A stretch of DNA of 17,884 nucleotides, from NCBI GenBank assembly GCA_029858565.1, contig JAOUEV010000063.1:1-17884 (forward strand), given 5' to 3'. Shown here one piece after another: positions 1,197 to 7,626 of the stretch. The DNA is from Nitrospirota bacterium. GTDB taxonomy: Bacteria > Nitrospirota > UBA9217. Made by a program: the position numbers and the translations under genes. Numbering within the stretch: position 1 is the first letter of the stretch; every line of letters begins with the position of its first letter. The notes beneath the pieces are model-generated. The model did no database searches. It saw only the letters and a list, made by a program, of their open reading frames with translations, and was not told the origin of the DNA.

Positions 1197-2567
1197 ATGA
1201 AAGCAAAAGCAAAGACCGTCTATGTGTGCCAATCCTGCGGCAGCCAGTCGCCCCGGTGGATGGGCAAATGTCCGGACTGCGGCCAGTGGAACACGCTGGT
1301 CGAAGAGCGGATGGAGCGGCAAAAGGATATCGGCGCTGCAAAGAAGGGCCGTAGTTCTGAACCGCTTGCACTGAACGAGATCAAGACCGGCGACGAGGAC
1401 CGTTTCGTCACGAAGATCGGCGAGCTCGACAGGGTGCTGGGCGGCGGGATCGTTGCAGGCTCGGTTGTCCTGGTCGGCGGGGACCCGGGGATCGGCAAAT
1501 CGACCCTGGTGCTCCAGATGCTGCGGCAGGTTGCGGAGCTCCGGGGCAAGGCGCTCTATGTTTCAGGCGAGGAATCGCCGTCCCAGATCAAGATGCGCGC
1601 ACAGCGTTTGGGGGTCAAGGCCGAGAACCTGTACGTGCTTGCCGAGACATCGCTCGATGAGATCACCCGCGCTGCTGACGAGCTCCAGCCCCAGGTCATT
1701 GTTGTTGATTCGATCCAGACGGTCTTTACCTCGGAACTTCCGTCAGCTCCCGGCAGCGTGGGCCAGGTGCGCGAGGTCTCGGGACGTCTCATGCTCTATG
1801 CAAAACGCACGGGCATCCCGACCTTTCTCATCGGCCATGTGACCAAGGACGGCGCGATCGCCGGGCCCCGGGTCTTGGAGCATATTGTGGACACGGTGCT
1901 CTACTTCGAAGGAGACCGGGGCCATGCCTTCCGCATTCTCCGGGCGGTCAAGAACCGCTTTGGGAGCACGAACGAGATCGGCGTGTTCGAGATGAAGGAG
2001 TCCGGTCTTGCCGAGGTTGCCAATCCTTCGGAGCTGTTCCTTGCTGAACGGCCGAAAGACGCCACGGGCTCGGTCGTGGTATCGTCATTGGAAGGATCGC
2101 GGCCGATCCTTGCCGAGCTCCAGGCCCTGGTCACGCCGACCAAAATGACCATGCCGCGCCGCACTTCCATCGGCGTTGACTACAACCGCGTATCACTCCT
2201 GATTGCGGTGCTTGAAAAGCGCGTTGGCATGCACCTCATGGGCATGGACGTGTTCGTGAACATCGTGGGCGGCCTGAAGATCGACGAACCTGCGGTCGAC
2301 CTCGGCGTGATCGCAGCTGTCGCATCGAGTTTCCGCGAGAAGTCGATCGATCCGAACACGGTCGTGATGGGCGAGGTGGGCCTCGCCGGCGAGGTCCGCG
2401 CCATCAGCCAGGCAGAACTGCGCTTGAAAGACGCGGCCAAGCTCGGATTCTCGCGCTGCATCCTACCGATGGTGAACGTTGAGAAGCTTGATAAGGCAGC
2501 GGGCATCGGGAAGATGGAGCTCATCGGTGTCAGGACCGTGGAAGAGGCGATGGAGCGGTTGTTCTAG
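1197..2567 (+). CDS. radA: DNA repair protein RadA/Sms
   Basis: C4 zinc finger (CQSC...CPDC), Walker A GDPGIGKST, KNRFG motif and Lon-like C-terminal domain. Confidence 0.97.
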   Translation: MKAKAKTVYVCQSCGSQSPRWMGKCPDCGQWNTLVEERMERQKDIGAAKKGRSSEPLALNEIKTGDEDRFVTKIGELDRVLGGGIVAGSVVLVGGDPGIGKSTLVLQMLRQVAELRGKALYVSGEESPSQIKMRAQRLGVKAENLYVLAETSLDEITRAADELQPQVIVVDSIQTVFTSELPSAPGSVGQVREVSGRLMLYAKRTGIPTFLIGHVTKDGAIAGPRVLEHIVDTVLYFEGDRGHAFRILRAVKNRFGSTNEIGVFEMKESGLAEVANPSELFLAERPKDATGSVVVSSLEGSRPILAELQALVTPTKMTMPRRTSIGVDYNRVSLLIAVLEKRVGMHLMGMDVFVNIVGGLKIDEPAVDLGVIAAVASSFREKSIDPNTVVMGEVGLAGEVRAISQAELRLKDAAKLGFSRCILPMVNVEKLDKAAGIGKMELIGVRTVEEAMERLF

Positions 2568-2577
2568 GTTTATTATT

Positions 2578-2603
2578 ACCACGGAGGCACGGAGACACAG
2601 AGA
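2578..2603 (+). repeat. Short 8-mer tandem repeat CACGGAGG-CACGGAGA-CACAGAGA
   Basis: Three imperfect 8-nt units at 2580, 2588 and 2596, read directly from the sequence. Confidence 0.7.
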
Positions 2604-2607
2604 AAAT

Positions 2608-3726
2608 ATGGTCAAACAGGTTGCTATAGTTGTGTTTGCGCTTTTAATTTCTTCCTACGGCTTAAGTGCTGCGTATGGAAATGATACATTTGTCTATGAC
2701 AATGGTCGCACGGCTTATCCGATAAATACAGACAAGATACGGATGGCAGAGGAGAAAATTATCGTAATGATGCTTGGCGATGGATTCAGTCGGAAAGCTA
2801 AGGTAACCTGCGATTTTATTTTTGAAAATATTACTGACAAAGAGGTGTCGGCGAAGATCGGCTTTCCTGCGGAGGATCAGTATTACCATGATATCGGTGA
2901 AGGTGAAAAACGCTACCCGCCCCTACGAGATTTTGTGGCTCTTGTCGATGGGAAGAAGACTCAAGTAAATATCCGAACTCAGGAAGATAAGTATCCTGTT
3001 CTTTATTGGTATACATGGGATGTCACGTTTCCACCGTCCCGCCGAATTACCATCCGAAATGTCTACGAAACAGGCCTTTCACTCAGCTATTATAACCAAT
3101 GGTTCACATATATCTTAACAACCGGTGCAAATTGGAAAGGCCCGATCGGGCATTCAGAAGTAGAAGTTGTGTATGACAGCGTGGATGAACTCAGGAAGAG
3201 AGTAAAATCAGCATCGCCTGATAATTTTAAAATATCAGGAAGTAAAATTGTCTGGGATTTCATCAATTTAATTCCCAAAGAAAATATACAAGTTTACGAG
3301 AATAACATGGATCGCGAAGGCTATTTATCAGATCCAACGCACAGGTTATTCGAACGGCTGGCCGATTTTTTTCGCAAAAAAGAATATGTTGGAGGAAAAA
3401 GGGATTACACTGAACAAGATTTGGATATCCGGAAGATTAACGGGATCATGTCTTTCGTTCAGCAGATGAAAAATGAATATGCGGGAAATGTTAAGTCCGG
3501 GGAACAGTTAGTCACTGAAATAAACTTAATGTACCTGAGGTTACTTAGAAACGAGGTGTATGCAAAGCACGGTCGATATTTTGACTCCGAGTACCTCCGG
3601 AAGTTTTTTATGAAGGTCGGAGGCTATAATAGTGGGCCGGAATTTAATGAGGCGTCGCTAAACGCTTACGAAAGGAAGAATGTTGAGAGCATTGCTGCTT
3701 TTGAGGGAAAGCTTAAGAAACATTAA
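2608..3726 (+). CDS. Secreted DUF4424-like N-terminal domain plus C-terminal YARHG domain protein
   Basis: ATG at 2608 begins a signal peptide (MVKQVAIVVFALLISSYGLSAAYG). YILTTGANWKGPIG is a DUF4424-like motif, and LRLLRNEVYAKHGRYF...LNAYERKNV is a YARHG domain. The 2479 start in the track overlaps radA and is unlikely. Confidence 0.8.
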   Translation: MVKQVAIVVFALLISSYGLSAAYGNDTFVYDNGRTAYPINTDKIRMAEEKIIVMMLGDGFSRKAKVTCDFIFENITDKEVSAKIGFPAEDQYYHDIGEGEKRYPPLRDFVALVDGKKTQVNIRTQEDKYPVLYWYTWDVTFPPSRRITIRNVYETGLSLSYYNQWFTYILTTGANWKGPIGHSEVEVVYDSVDELRKRVKSASPDNFKISGSKIVWDFINLIPKENIQVYENNMDREGYLSDPTHRLFERLADFFRKKEYVGGKRDYTEQDLDIRKINGIMSFVQQMKNEYAGNVKSGEQLVTEINLMYLRLLRNEVYAKHGRYFDSEYLRKFFMKVGGYNSGPEFNEASLNAYERKNVESIAAFEGKLKKH

Positions 3727-3865: not shown

Positions 3866-5767
3866 ATGGCTATCGGCAAACTCTGGAACTTCTTCGGCAC
3901 CCGCTTCGGGATGATCATCTTGTCAGCCCAGCTTGTGCTGGTTATTGCCTTCATTTCCCTCTACTCCGGATACCAGTCCAGCGACAAGTGCGTTGCTTGT
4001 CACGCAGATAAAGAGCGGATGACAAAGCTCGGTTCCCCTGAGTTCGTGATGACGCGGGAACAGGTGCAGAAAGAATCGCGCCATCCGAACACCGAGTGCC
4101 GGGACTGCCATCTTGGGAACGGTTTGTCAGAGGATCCCGTAAAAGCGCATAAAGGCATGCTGAAGCTCCTGGTGCTGGACAATGATCTCGACGTTATACC
4201 GCGCAAGGGACTGGTGAAGCAGCTTCTTCCTTCAGGCAATGATCGCCTACGCGCCATGCTGCCACGAGACAGCAGCGGCGAGCTGGTCTACGAGGTCGGG
4301 ACGCTCATGTGGCATGACCGGAACCCGGTCACGCTTGGGTACGATCCTGCTATTGCGGCAAAGACCTGCGGCAAAGCATCGTGCCATCCTGACCAGGTGA
4401 AGCAGTTCGAGACCAGCATGATGGGCTCGAACTTCCGCCAGCGGTCCATGCGGACCTGGAACGATATCCACGGCCCGAATAATTGAGGGCCTTCTTTTGC
4501 AGACACCCTTCCGGTCGGAAGGGCTGAAGGCAACAGGTTCTCCTTCGAGAACACGAGCAGGATCGTTTCCGAGATCAACAGCACGCTCACGCACGACCAG
4601 GCCATTGCCAAGCAAAAGGCCTGCAACCTCTGCCATTCAGGCTGTCTTGATTGCCATTACACGCCCATGTCCGGCAAAGGGTCCCATTCCATGAGCCGCA
4701 TCCCTCCTGCGGTGAACTGCACCAGCGGCGGCAGGAGTACCTTTATCTGCCACGCAGGCACCATGGAGCGCAGGCGCGGGGACAGCTACCTTGGAAAAGA
4801 ATTGGCTGAACCTGCCGGGTTACCCGAGGACGTGCATGTGAAACAGAAGCTCGAATGCGTTGACTGCCACCAGACCGGACCGGACGGCATGGGCCATATC
4901 GAACGCAAAGCGACCTGCCAGGATTGCCACATTGAAGTTGAAGAGGCAATGGCAAAGAGCGCGCACAAGAACCTGGCGTGCGAGGCCTGTCATGTAAAAG
5001 TGCTGGGCGGGTACGAGATGACCTCCTGGGGTGCGGGAACGGTCCTGTCAAAGCCTAATCCTTTTAAGAAGTATTCATTATATTATGGACCCCAGGAGCC
5101 GCCGATCCTGATCAAGGACCAGAAGGGCAGATGGATGCCGGTCAAGATCTGGCCGAACAGCGTGGGTTCTATAAAGGAAGAGATCAAGCCGACAGCGGGG
5201 CTCACCTGGCGCTGGCCTGATGGCGCGACACAGGATGCATACGCGCAGCTCGGGACCTTCAGTTACCCTGGAGGGAACAACAACTACCTTGCCTGGCTCC
5301 AGGTGGAACAGGTGGCCCATCCGCTCGGAAAGTCCCGATCCTGCGAAAGCTGCCACGCTTCGGAGACCCAGACCGCAGAAGTGAACTGGAGGTTCTTCGA
5401 TTCCCAGGGAGCCGAGCCGTTCACCGGCAGACAAAAGGTCGTGGCGGACAGAAAGGGATTGCGCGTCATCGATATCAAGGTAATCTCGAAGATGATGGTC
5501 ATGGAAGGCGGGAATACCAAAGATTTCGCCGCATGGCTTCATCTTGGAGATATCTGGAATACAAAAGGTGATTTCTCCATTCCCAAGGCTGATCAGAAGA
5601 AGTACCGTGACCTTGAAGCGTCACTCCGTGATGCACGGAAGAAAATTGCTATAATGGAGCGAGAGATCAACGCGCGGGAAGCAAAGGGCGAAGATGTCAG
5701 GAAGCTTAAGCGTCAGTGGAAGGAGATGAAGGCTGCGGGGGCGCATGAGTCCCATGTAGGCCTGTGA
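3866..5767 (+). CDS. Membrane-anchored multiheme c-type cytochrome, probable selenoprotein (633 aa, Sec at codon 207, TGA 4484-4486)
   Basis: 3866-4486 and 4667-5767 are in the same frame (offset 801 nt). The gap after TGA is open and encodes GPSFADTLP...CNLCHSGCLDCH. Motifs are CVACH, CRDCH, CNLCH, CLDCH, CVDCH, CQDCH, CEACH and CESCH, plus CX4CH and CX9CH. There is an N-terminal hydrophobic helix and a SECIS-like hairpin just after the TGA. Confidence 0.88.
4487..4531 (+). promoter_or_regulatory. Bacterial SECIS-like stem-loop
   Basis: CCCTTCC (4506-4512), loop GGTC (4513-4516), GGAAGGG (4517-4523), extended by CAG/CTG and GCCTT/AAGGC pairing. The G-initial loop starts 26 nt after the UGA. 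Confidence 0.82.
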
Positions 5768-5810: not shown

Positions 5811-6428
5811 ATGCACAAAGGCGAACGATTCAACAGCATCAGCCATCTGATCGGGACTGGATTTGCGATCGCGGGTCTCGCTGTGCTGGTGGTCAAGGCT
5901 GCAATGCACGGGGACCCCTGGCGCATCGTGAGCTTCAGCATATACGGCGCGACCCTGGTGATCCTCTATCTTGCGTCGACGCTCTATCATGGCGCCGGCG
6001 ACAGCTCGAAGAAGGCGCTGCAGAAGTTCGATCATCTTGCGATCTACCTTCTCATAGCCGGGACCTACACCCCATTTACCCTGGTGACCTTGCGCGGCGC
6101 GTGGGGATGGACCATCTTCGGCATAGTCTGGGGCCTGGCCATTGTCGGCATCCTGATCGACACTCTGCAGCACGGGGGAAGGCGCATTATTCAGGTGGTC
6201 ATTTATCTTCTGATGGGTTGGCTTGCCATGGTCGCGTTCAAACCGCTGCTGGCCGCGCTGCCCGGAGCGGGATTCGCCTGGCTTATGACGGGCGGCGTTT
6301 TTTATACAGGCGGTGTGGTCTTTTATGCGCTCGAAGGCAAGATGCCCTTTGCCCATGAGGTGTGGCATCTTTTCGTGCTCGGAGGCAGCATCAGCCATTA
6401 CGTGGCCATCCTGGTGTATGTGTTGTGA
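5811..6428 (+). CDS. Hemolysin III / PAQR family membrane protein (TrhA/YqfA-like)
   Basis: ERFNSISH, STLYH, DHLAIYLLIAGTYTP and HEVWHLFVL motifs, with about 7 transmembrane segments. Confidence 0.93.
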   Translation: MHKGERFNSISHLIGTGFAIAGLAVLVVKAAMHGDPWRIVSFSIYGATLVILYLASTLYHGAGDSSKKALQKFDHLAIYLLIAGTYTPFTLVTLRGAWGWTIFGIVWGLAIVGILIDTLQHGGRRIIQVVIYLLMGWLAMVAFKPLLAALPGAGFAWLMTGGVFYTGGVVFYALEGKMPFAHEVWHLFVLGGSISHYVAILVYVL

Positions 6429-6430
6429 AA

Positions 6431-6512
6431 AATGCGGAATTCGTAATGCCGAGTGCGGAATGAAAGGATCAAGGAGCAAAGAAGGGCTAAAGGGGTAATA
6501 GGGCTAGCAGGG
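6431..6512 (+). repeat. Imperfect short tandem repeats (7-mer AATGCGG family, then purine-rich AGGGCTAA-like units)
   Basis: AATGCGG AATTCGT AATGCCG AGTGCGG AATGA at 6431-6463, and GAAGGGCTAAAGGGGTAATAGGGCTAGCAGGG at 6481-6512. Confidence 0.6.
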
Positions 6513-6541
6513 AAAGAAAATGGGCGGCTCGATGAGCCGCC
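6513..6541 (-). terminator. Intrinsic terminator for the DHH gene (possibly bidirectional)
   Basis: GGCGGCTC-GAT-GAGCCGCC hairpin (6523-6541), followed on the minus strand by CATTTTCTTT, between convergent genes. Confidence 0.7.
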
Positions 6542-6587
6542 TGTATGGTTTTCGCAGGTTGGAGTCTGGAATTTACCAGGTTCGGGG

Positions 6588-7511
6588 CTACTGTTCGTTG
6601 ATGGTCTTGAGAATATCCTTCAGTACCTCGTCCACCTTTGCAGGCGGTATTTGGCAGGTCCCGACCTTTTTGTGACCGCCGCCGCCGTGCTTCAACATCA
6701 AGGCGCCCACATCCACTTTTGAAGTGCGGTTCAGGATACTGCAGCCAACGGAGATCATGATGAACTCGCCTTTCCTGCCGTCAGCGAGTCTGACCGAGAT
6801 GTTCTGGTCCGGGAAGAGCACGTACTCCATGAACCGGTTGCCGTTTGGCACTTCCTTCTTTCCCCGCAGGTCGAGCACGATGGCATTGCCTTCGACACGG
6901 CCGACATCTTTCAGGAACTTCTTATACTTTTCGTTGTCCTCACGGTATGCCTTTACCCTGTCCTGCATGTCGGGGCTTGCAAGGATATTGTCGATGGTCA
7001 TGGTCCTGAGCATGCCGGGAATGGATTTCATGAGGTCGAAGTTGCTGACGCGGTAGGTATGGGTATACCCCAGACCGGTGCGGGGGTCAGACAGGAACGC
7101 GAGCAGCATCCATCCCTGGGCGTCCAGGATATCCTCCCTGGTGTATTTTGCCGAATCCGCCTTGTCCACGGCAGTGAGCATCTCCTCGAACTTCTTGAGC
7201 TTCGCGGTCTTGTCCGTTTCCTTGGAATAATAGTTGTAGATGACCCGTGCGGCGCTCGGTTCCATCTCGCAGGCGCCCTTGAACTTGCCCGCGAGCTGCT
7301 GACGCTGAAGTTCGCTTGAGTGGTGGTCGAACCAGAGGCCGCAGCCTTCGGCATATGGCATGTTGGCGATCACATCGTTCGAGTTCACCTTGATCTTGCC
7401 GTCCTGCAGGTCCTTGGGATGGCAGTAGAGGTAATCGTCCACGATCCCCAGTTCTTCGAGCAGTGCTGCGCAGGCGAGTCCGTCAAAGTCCGATCTTGTC
7501 ACAAGTCGCAT
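6588..7511 (-). CDS. DHH-family phosphoesterase (exopolyphosphatase-like / nanoRNase-like)
   Basis: MRLVTRSDFDGL start, WFDHH, and C-terminal GGGGH. ATG 7511 has GGAGG upstream, so it is preferred over 7547. Confidence 0.88.
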   Translation of the reverse strand: MRLVTRSDFDGLACAALLEELGIVDDYLYCHPKDLQDGKIKVNSNDVIANMPYAEGCGLWFDHHSSELQRQQLAGKFKGACEMEPSAARVIYNYYSKETDKTAKLKKFEEMLTAVDKADSAKYTREDILDAQGWMLLAFLSDPRTGLGYTHTYRVSNFDLMKSIPGMLRTMTIDNILASPDMQDRVKAYREDNEKYKKFLKDVGRVEGNAIVLDLRGKKEVPNGNRFMEYVLFPDQNISVRLADGRKGEFIMISVGCSILNRTSKVDVGALMLKHGGGGHKKVGTCQIPPAKVDEVLKDILKTINEQ

Positions 7512-7626
7512 TGCTATCCTCCCCGGTCGTAATGAATGATGCTTCACAAGAGTATATCAGAATTTTACTTCCCAGCGGGCCCGTTTTTACGTACTATAGA
7601 GGTGTCTGGAGCCTTGGGGAGGACTG

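Follow-up and report, generated by a model that had tools for sequence, protein, structure and literature searches.

The 17,884 bp contig JAOUEV010000063.1 of the Nitrospirota bacterium assembly GCA_029858565.1 (GTDB lineage Bacteria; Nitrospirota; UBA9217), referred to here in its entirety as the window, contains a gene for a multiheme c-type cytochrome that is broken by one in-frame TGA. This locus raises the question of whether that TGA is a stop codon or is read as selenocysteine (Sec) and, if it is read, what a selenocysteine might do in a protein of this type. An earlier note on this DNA had proposed a hidden selenoprotein, a periplasm-facing multiheme cytochrome of about 633 residues with Sec at the UGA. 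Conservation of a Cys/TGA column in relatives, a conserved hairpin and the presence of the Sec machinery in the genome support that proposal, and we conclude that 3866-5767 very probably represents a genuine selenoprotein of a distinct family. The explanation as a whole, a single Sec-decoded gene for a periplasmic cytochrome with ten hemes together with the mechanism suggested below, we consider likely.

A cytochrome gene with one internal TGA

On the forward strand, 3866-5767 can be translated in one frame in which the sole internal stop is the TGA at 4484-4486, in the peptide context HGPNN-TGA-GPSF. The gene and its internal codon are:

3866..5767, + strand: complete cytochrome gene, 633 codons plus a TGA stop, predicted decaheme c-type cytochrome with Sec at codon 207 (from translation)
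4484..4486, + strand: in-frame UGA predicted to be read as selenocysteine, U207 (from conservation of the TGA/Cys column among relatives)

When open reading frames (ORFs) are listed using translation table 11, the gene is broken into 3866-4486 (206 aa) and 4667-5767 (366 aa). That a single TGA joins two ORFs in the same frame, and that the 60 codons beyond it are open and include two CxxCH motifs, had been noticed previously. Translation confirmed both points, and the motifs in the open stretch (4487-4666) are CNLCH (nt 4622) and CLDCH (nt 4643).

TGG is found 13 times in the cytochrome gene and TGA twice, as the internal codon and as the terminal stop. TGA terminates 5/12 large window ORFs checked, the cytochrome gene included, and no in-frame TGA was found in the other 11. 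As TGA ends the cytochrome gene and four other ORFs, none of which has an in-frame TGA, we conclude that UGA is an ordinary stop codon in this organism. The general reassignment of UGA that the earlier note had thought unlikely is therefore excluded.

Contigs from a public sequencing run that may be the source of the window are identical to it at the TGA, with no variant listed at 4484-4486. Contigs from three further runs are fragments of relatives, and none of the differences listed for them is at the TGA. Among the runs listed for the gene, none is recorded as RNA. As the same TGA is found in many independent assemblies (46/49 genomes of the class and 41/80 loci in the surveys described in the next section), the sequencing error that had been allowed for is excluded, and the internal TGA is a genuine codon.

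The TGA aligns with an invariant cysteine

Orthologs that are 65-77% identical and align across residues 1-629 were found in the genomes of 41 relatives. Twenty ortholog loci were retrieved, and the 19 that matched a motif search for the Sec/Cys column have TGA (16 loci) or TGT or TGC (3 loci) at that position. In a scan that used one genome per species (327 relatives), the column was read in the 80 best loci and is TGA in 41, TGC in 24 and TGT in 15. For the class to which the window belongs, 64 genomes, all from one family, were searched. Matches at E ≤ 1e-120 were returned for 51, and among the 49 in which the column is covered, 46 have TGA and three have no stop.

Of the 120 best database matches, 97 are full-length proteins, and every one of these has Cys at the column. 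The Cys is invariant also in relatives of 32-41% identity, where the motif is GP[H/Q][N/D/S]C[G/R], and the motif of the family at this site is GP[N/H/Q]N-C/U-GPSF. In an alignment of 57 homologs, no Cys beyond those of the ten heme motifs is invariant except the one in column 207, with Cys285 counted as the first Cys of a CX9CH motif. The question of whether homologs have Cys or TGA at the HGPNN-x-GPSF column is thus answered in the affirmative, and Trp, Arg or any other residue was never seen there among the homologs compared. The in-frame UGA is conserved among orthologs and the coding sequence is conserved on both of its flanks, as expected for a selenoprotein gene.

Two orthologs, G049:C40:6305-8191 and G060:C8:239170-240991, contain extra stops. 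One has an additional TAG, and the other is in two pieces, with a TAA and what looks like a break in the frame. They may be pseudogenes or assembly errors.

A conserved hairpin follows the TGA

Downstream of the UGA is a hairpin that resembles a bacterial selenocysteine insertion sequence (SECIS). The relevant features in the window and in a second group of Sec forms are:

4506..4523, + strand: SECIS-like apical hairpin, stem 4506-4512 with 4517-4523, loop GGUC 4513-4516, 19 nt after the UGA
4494..4530, + strand: lower stem of the SECIS-like element, 4494-4498 with 4526-4530 around the apical hairpin (RNAalifold consensus and minimum-energy fold of the window)
L105:3628-3681, L117:842-895 and L119:3157-3210: hairpin segments of the second Sec group

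The sequence of the hairpin is CCCUUCC-GGUC-GGAAGGG. The GGUC loop and the flanking CC/GG are invariant in 39/39 aligned Sec forms, and the invariant positions include the third-codon positions of Pro and Val codons. In the same alignment, 91.1% of cells are paired in the hairpin stem, compared with 22-53% when the partners are slid. Compensatory changes are seen in 2/7 stem pairs, one of which is U-A in the window and G-C in nearly all others. The RNAalifold consensus of the 39 sequences adds the lower stem, which is weaker evidence, consisting mainly of G-C to G-U changes. The hairpin has been lost from three Cys orthologs nested within the Sec group, and for two of them, L060 and L078, folding confirms the loss (-10 kcal/mol compared with -19.5). 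The hairpin at 4506-4523 has the form of a bacterial SECIS, a stem-loop that directly follows the UGA and has a conserved apical loop containing G/U.

The Sec forms L105 (Thermodesulfovibrionales), L117 and L119 (both Dissulfurispiraceae), which are 46-47% identical to the window protein, have a different hairpin, CCUCCG-G/U-CGGAGG, at the same place after the UGA. The Cys form L122, a sister to L117, still has the hairpin sequence of this second group, which suggests a recent Sec/Cys switch.

Selenocysteine machinery and other selenoprotein genes

The genome includes tRNA-Sec, selA, selB and selD, all above curated cut-offs. The search for selA, selB, selC and selD that had been recommended therefore returned the complete set. 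These genes, and a second gene for a Sec-containing cytochrome, are:

C73:36061-36155, - strand: tRNA-Sec, 64 bits (ARAGORN: SeC, anticodon TCA)
C101: selA and selB, adjacent
G000 C3:2376-3290 and C14:90529-91446, + strand: two selD genes, each with one in-frame TGA
G000 C2:7504-8826 (L043:1505-2827), - strand: true MccSep/ExtKL ortholog, 433 aa, five CxxCH

Judging by their sequences, both selD genes encode Sec-containing SelD paralogs. MccSep, or ExtKL, is the product of Geobacter sulfurreducens GSU2937-2936 and is represented by the NCBIfam model NF040886 and PDB entries 9WT8-9WTC (PMC13510729). The MccSep of the genome under study has Sec313 in the context HSIPDG-U-PTPNR. It scores 581.6 bits on NF040886, providing a positive control for that model, and matches 9WT8 and 9WT9 at E ~1e-170. 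The 120 best database matches to this MccSep are all 292-385 aa, with query coverage of 64-72%, which would fit N-terminal fragments that end at the TGA. The organism also has dsrAB.

Heme motifs and predicted architecture

The cytochrome had been thought to carry 8-10 hemes. We found ten heme motifs, comprising eight CxxCH, one CX4CH (CGKASCH) and one CX9CH (CTSGGRSTFICH), and all ten are invariant in the 57-sequence alignment. The parts of the protein are:

3902..3976, + strand: N-terminal hydrophobic helix, residues 13-37 (AlphaFold2; predicted local distance difference test, pLDDT, 88-95)
3989..4387, + strand: heme motifs 1-3, upstream of the UGA; CVACH 3989, CRDCH 4097, CGKASCH (CX4CH) 4367
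4622..4993, + strand: heme motifs 4-9; CNLCH 4622, CLDCH 4643, CTSGGRSTFICH (CX9CH) 4718-4753, CVDCH 4856, CQDCH 4916, CEACH 4979
5012..5485, + strand: predicted beta-rich domain, residues 383-540 (AlphaFold2, pLDDT ~81-97), with heme motif 10, CESCH, at 5342
5594..5740, + strand: predicted pair of long charged C-terminal helices, residues 577-625 (AlphaFold2 model and alignment)

Pfam Cytochrome_C7 (PF14522) matches residues 321-376 with 30.6 bits, compared with a cut-off of 24.8. Together with the ten motifs and the N-terminal hydrophobic helix, this match identifies the protein as a multiheme c-type cytochrome. Motif 3 is a plain CxxCH in divergent relatives. At residues 285-296 (window 4718-4753), the C-X9-CH is invariant and includes a conserved GGGR loop, and distant relatives have C-X8-9-CH. 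This may be an unconventional heme attachment site, and no occurrence of the term 'CX9CH' was found in the literature searched. There are at least five CcsA/CcmC-type heme-handling loci in the genome, and no lyase gene adjoins the cytochrome gene.

The AlphaFold2 model, built using 57 sequences, has a mean pLDDT of 82.6 and a predicted template modelling score (pTM) of 0.81. The heme region up to approximately residue 380 is modelled mostly as coil and helix. His627, which follows the C-terminal helices, is invariant within the subfamily, and the C-terminal helix region is missing from several divergent relatives.

Homologs among the database matches share an MxIGKLW N-terminus with the window protein, and the first heme motif starts 5 residues after the N-terminal helix. 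From the model, we infer that this helix serves as a signal anchor or as an export signal, with the heme domain on the periplasmic side. Short classical signal peptides are found in place of the helix in divergent relatives, some of which have a C-terminal membrane helix, and a periplasmic location is therefore the common denominator.

Sec207 is in a long, highly conserved loop between motifs 3 and 4, in which Met186, Asn189, Arg191, Gln192, Arg193, Trp198, Gly203, Pro204, Asn206, Cys207, Gly208, Pro209, Ser210 and Asp213 are invariant. Arg191, Arg193, Arg290, Arg303 and Arg304 are all invariant and are located in conserved loops. Besides Cys207, only approximately seven invariant candidates for distal ligands (His95, His274, His324, His367, His485, Met186 and His/Met73) were counted for the ten hemes, and on this count residue 207 could be a heme ligand. 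The column of candidate ligand 73 contains His in the window subfamily, Met in divergent relatives and Cys in P0011.

Distribution and state of annotation

In a quick maximum-likelihood tree of 81 sequences, which is unrooted, the window falls within a clade of 41 rows that includes 39 Sec and two Cys forms and has a Shimodaira-Hasegawa-like approximate likelihood ratio (SH-aLRT) value of 100. The Sec forms L105, L117 and L119 are inside a clade that is otherwise Cys. At least five Sec/Cys switches are required by this tree, their direction being unpolarised. The Sec form is the norm in the window's class of mostly groundwater and sediment Nitrospirota (46/49 genomes covering the column).

When a profile of the family was used to query 1.84 billion cluster representatives, just 197 proteins were returned at E ≤ 0.001 and 51 at E ≤ 1e-30, and the family is therefore compact. 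The ESM Atlas clusters nearest to a Cys homolog are labelled only 'cytochrome C family protein'. Nitrospirota and Thermodesulfobacteriota are the commonest phyla in these clusters, and single clusters are led by Myxococcota and Fidelibacterota.

Among the 120 best database matches, 22 are fragments of 358-430 aa that start at query residues 215-276, right after the UGA, and the gene call for the window itself is one of these. As the fragment calls start past the UGA, the anchor helix, hemes 1-3 and the Sec loop have been lost by the gene callers, and the latest-starting calls, including that in the window, additionally lose hemes 4-5. Since public gene calls cut the proteins after the UGA in this way, surveys of sulfur cycling, selenium use and electron transfer that depend on annotation miss the family.

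Gene neighbourhood

The order in the window is an omptin-like ORF (on the opposite strand), radA, a DUF4424/YARHG protein gene, the cytochrome gene, TrhA and a DHH protein gene. In relatives it is radA, the cytochrome gene, then a glycine-transporter-like gene or a nitroreductase gene, and a distant Cys form is flanked by RodZ and RNase R. Clusters of ORFs from the flanking regions consisted mainly of shadow ORFs and were uninformative. Further features in the window and in related genomes are:

33-1049, - strand: ORF with a Pfam omptin-family match of 58 bits, far under all NCBIfam omptin cut-offs
2479-3726, + strand: DUF4424/YARHG gene upstream of the cytochrome gene, extra relative to relatives
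5811-7547: TrhA (hemolysin-III family) gene and DHH-family ORF downstream, likewise extra relative to relatives
16340-17884, + strand: tRNA-Thr(TGT), tRNA-Tyr, tRNA-Gly(TCC) and tRNA-Thr(GGT), followed by an elongation-factor-like GTPase ORF that crosses the window end
L124:5938-7731, - strand, and L126:5752-7617, + strand: Cys-type paralogs in related genomes, 41-43% identity

From its sequence alone, the ORF at 33-1049 is a distant omptin-like outer-membrane beta-barrel. The GTPase ORF at the end of the window matches the N-terminal part of the selB model with 194 bits, which is below the cut-off, and is probably tuf. The L124 and L126 paralogs adjoin PAS/HisKA or dCache-HAMP sensor kinases, a response regulator and a tandem Usp protein, an arrangement that hints at two-component regulation of the paralogs.

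Possible function and alternative explanations

We propose that the single gene at 3866-5767 gives rise to a 633-residue c-type cytochrome that would be exported to the periplasm and would have ten covalent heme sites. The UGA at 4484-4486 would be decoded as selenocysteine by SelB and tRNA-Sec, directed by the GGUC-loop hairpin, and Sec207 would stand in for the invariant cysteine that the family has outside its heme motifs. Sec207 would then be the reactive residue of an active site on one heme, acting either as a nucleophile beside the heme or as its distal axial ligand, and the remaining nine hemes would pass electrons to this site from the membrane side. The substrate would most likely be an inorganic sulfur or selenium species, for example polysulfide, thiosulfate, tetrathionate or selenite. 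Such cooperation between Sec and heme would resemble that between Sec and the Cys-ligated heme of MccSep.

A periplasmic decaheme sulfur/selenium enzyme with Cys/Sec at a heme site is a mechanism put forward by analogy, and we hold it tentatively, at somewhat under an even chance. It is favoured because Sec is catalytic or a metal ligand elsewhere, because a single invariant Cys of this kind typifies those c-type cytochromes that handle sulfur (PMC13510729), because conserved arginines flank the site, and because the organism has both dsrAB and MccSep. According to an excerpt of a 2026 review, Sec in characterised selenoenzymes is either catalytic or a metal ligand (PMC13188914). A more specific version, in which Sec207 would be the distal axial ligand of a c-type heme at the active site of a membrane-anchored, self-contained decaheme polysulfide/thiosulfate/selenite reductase that operates beside MccSep in sulfur-cycling Nitrospirota, with Sec gained or lost at the ligand position at least five times, is speculative and, taken in all its parts, doubtful. 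To our knowledge, a selenolate-ligated heme is known solely from engineered P450s, and a natural Sec-heme bond is raised here as a testable possibility.

Sec207 might instead be a non-catalytic distal ligand that gives its heme a very low potential, like that of the His/Cys hemes in DsrJ-type proteins, in a cytochrome that serves for electron transfer or storage, for example an extracellular or periplasmic one. The ligand count above permits this, there are no partner or substrate-handling genes in the loci examined, and a weak local BLAST alignment (E = 0.094) places U207 opposite Cys227 of the genome's MccSep, which is the counterpart of the heme-ligating Cys239 (PMC13510729). However, the alignment is not significant and was not recovered by profile-profile comparison, potential tuning alone would hardly justify the expense of decoding Sec, and in known selenoproteins Sec either takes part in catalysis or ligates a catalytic metal (PMC13188914). 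On balance, we regard an electron-transfer role as unlikely. It is improbable that the protein is instead an NrfA- or HAO-like enzyme that acts on nitrogen compounds (nitrite, hydroxylamine or NO). While NrfA (6v0a) and NrfH (2j7a_C) are the only solved structures matched by the family profile, and multiheme enzymes often accept nitrogen as well as sulfur substrates (PMC13510729), these matches are limited to generic heme-packing segments, the protein lacks a CxxCK motif, and the models for the NrfA, HAO and OTR families do not match it. Moreover, an invariant free Cys/Sec is the hallmark of cytochromes that handle sulfur, among them TsdA, SoxAX, DsrJ and MccSep, not of those that handle nitrogen (PMC13510729).

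Two further alternatives concern the codon itself, and we consider each of them very improbable. If the TGA were a true stop, the locus would contain two genes or a decaying pseudogene and the open codons downstream would be a leftover. This is how standard gene callers treat it, and 22/120 best matches are fragments that start after the TGA, but the identical TGA has been kept in 46/49 genomes of the class, there is purifying selection on both sides of it (65-77% protein identity), homologs have an invariant Cys at the column, the hairpin is conserved in TGA forms only, and heme motifs 4 and 5 are in a stretch that has no start codon. A reading of the UGA as Trp, Gly or Cys, through reassignment or near-cognate suppression, could in principle occur at any tolerated in-frame UGA, and nothing specific favours it here. 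The use of TGA as the terminator of 5/12 large window ORFs, the cytochrome gene included, argues against it, as do a column that contains only Cys in homologs, never Trp or Gly, and the presence in the genome of the full Sec machinery and of other Sec genes (two selD and MccSep).

Several observations weigh against the explanation that we prefer, a Sec-decoded decaheme enzyme. Folding energy alone does not distinguish the hairpin, as a 54-nt segment has z = -1.1, with 27/200 shuffles equally stable, and an 83-nt segment has z = -2.2. The argument for a SECIS thus rests on conservation. Moreover, 4/7 stem pairs never vary, pair 26/37 is unpaired in 23/37 distinct sequences, and there is little covariation, the sequences being closely related and protein-coding. 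At gathering thresholds, Rfam returned four tRNAs from the window and no SECIS. In the AlphaFold2 model, pLDDT is lowest at the Sec loop (66-77) and at the CX9CH motif (47-60), and a Foldseek search of PDB found no solved structure that resembles the model (best E = 0.33). Finally, no functional or redox partner gene is near the cytochrome gene in any locus examined, the neighbours in all of them being housekeeping or regulatory (radA, glycine-transporter-like, nitroreductase, RodZ, RNase R and sensor kinases).

Comparison with known cytochromes and selenoproteins

Multiheme cytochrome selenoproteins are a very small group, in which MccSep is the only characterised case that we found. Described in 2026 as the polysulfide reductase that sulfur respiration had been lacking, MccSep is the key enzyme of that process in G. 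sulfurreducens, and its family occurs in Desulfobacterota and Thermodesulfovibrionia (PMC13510729). It has five hemes, the second of which is ligated by Cys239, and Sec325 is in a D-G-U-P loop of a C-terminal immunoglobulin-like (Ig-like) domain. Polysulfide and selenite are reduced via the Sec and the His/Cys-ligated heme (PMC13510729). An excerpt of the 2026 review lists three cytochrome/CXXCH selenoproteins, namely ExtKL, a CXXCH protein of the GSU2204 family (NF041027) and an octaheme cytochrome of the OTR family (TIGR04315) (PMC13188914).

None of the NCBIfam models is near its cut-off with the window protein, the best being ExtN with 24 bits compared with 200, and the models for ExtKL (NF040886, cut-off 250 bits), GSU2204 (NF041027) and OTR (TIGR04315) did not match it at E ≤ 0.1. 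When the family profile was used to query PDB sequences, the best match was NrfA 6v0a (E = 3.7e-4, residues 302-384), NrfH 2j7a_C matched at E = 0.0019 (residues 345-383), and no MccSep chain was found, though MccSep chains are contained in that PDB set. BLASTP against the MccSep of the same genome aligned heme motifs only, and an hhalign comparison of the window family with an MccSep alignment gave a probability of 4.4%. A 'P-x-x-C-G' likeness between the Sec site and the heme-ligating Cys site of MccSep was rejected as evidence, as it comes from the alignment with E = 0.094 and was unrecovered by hhalign. In these sequence comparisons, the window family is distinct from MccSep/ExtKL and from the other cytochrome selenoproteins named in the review excerpt (PMC13188914). 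The comparison with Geobacter ExtKL made in the earlier note thus holds as an analogy and fails as a statement of membership, as there is no NF040886 match, the hhalign probability is 4.4%, and the real ExtKL is elsewhere in the genome. As the genome has its own MccSep and no homology between the two families is detectable, we conclude that the organism has two unrelated Sec multiheme cytochromes.

No description of the window family was found in the literature, which yielded MccSep, the 2026 selenoproteome review and BSepDB, and the supplementary family lists of selenoproteome surveys (BSepDB, a survey of groundwater metagenome-assembled genomes and the MccSep paper) could include it. The family would represent a second way of building Sec into a heme protein, unrelated in architecture to the first, with ten hemes including one at an unusual CX9CH, and this Sec cytochrome is found in organisms equipped with MccSep and dsrAB as well. 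Its natural series of Sec and Cys forms could be used to study what selenium contributes at a heme site.

Other known systems share single features with the window protein. Like it, members of the TIGR04315 and NF041027 families are heme c proteins, some with Sec, that the review excerpt ties to sulfur or metal respiration (PMC13188914), but their heme numbers and motif contexts are unlike those seen here. TsdA, SoxAX and DsrJ resemble it in having an invariant Cys outside CxxCH in a c-type cytochrome of a sulfur-metabolising organism (PMC13510729), a Cys that may ligate a heme or be catalytic. However, NCBIfam, Pfam and PDB profile searches found no sequence relationship between them and the window protein. 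We know of no TsdA, SoxAX or DsrJ that uses Sec at the ligand position. In the octaheme sulfite reductase MccA/SirA, one heme is on a CX15CH (or CX12NKGCH) site for which a dedicated heme lyase is needed. The window protein likewise has a single long-spaced Cys...CH motif, but here the spacing is CX9CH (CX8-9 in relatives), and no homology to MccA/SirA was detected. The NapC/NirT/NrfH family of membrane quinol dehydrogenases, in which a tetraheme module comes straight after the membrane helix, is named Cytochrom_NNT in Pfam, and in the window protein there is no match to Cytochrom_NNT, only the weak NrfH match in PDB. A link to quinol may nonetheless be supposed from the first heme motif, 5 residues past the N-terminal helix.

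The closest parallel is with MccSep/ExtKL. The differences are that MccSep has five hemes and the window protein ten motifs, that the Sec of MccSep is in the Ig-like domain while that predicted here is in the heme domain, on the loop separating motifs 3 and 4 (GPNN-U-GPSF), and that the CX4CH and CX9CH sites and the N-terminal membrane helix belong to the window family. What the two share is a periplasmic multiheme c-type protein with one Sec from an in-frame UGA that is followed by a hairpin, the alternation of Sec and Cys forms within the family, an N-terminal heme-rich part followed by a beta-rich domain, hosts among Thermodesulfovibrionia-type Nitrospirota and Desulfobacterota, and genes that are systematically truncated by gene callers.

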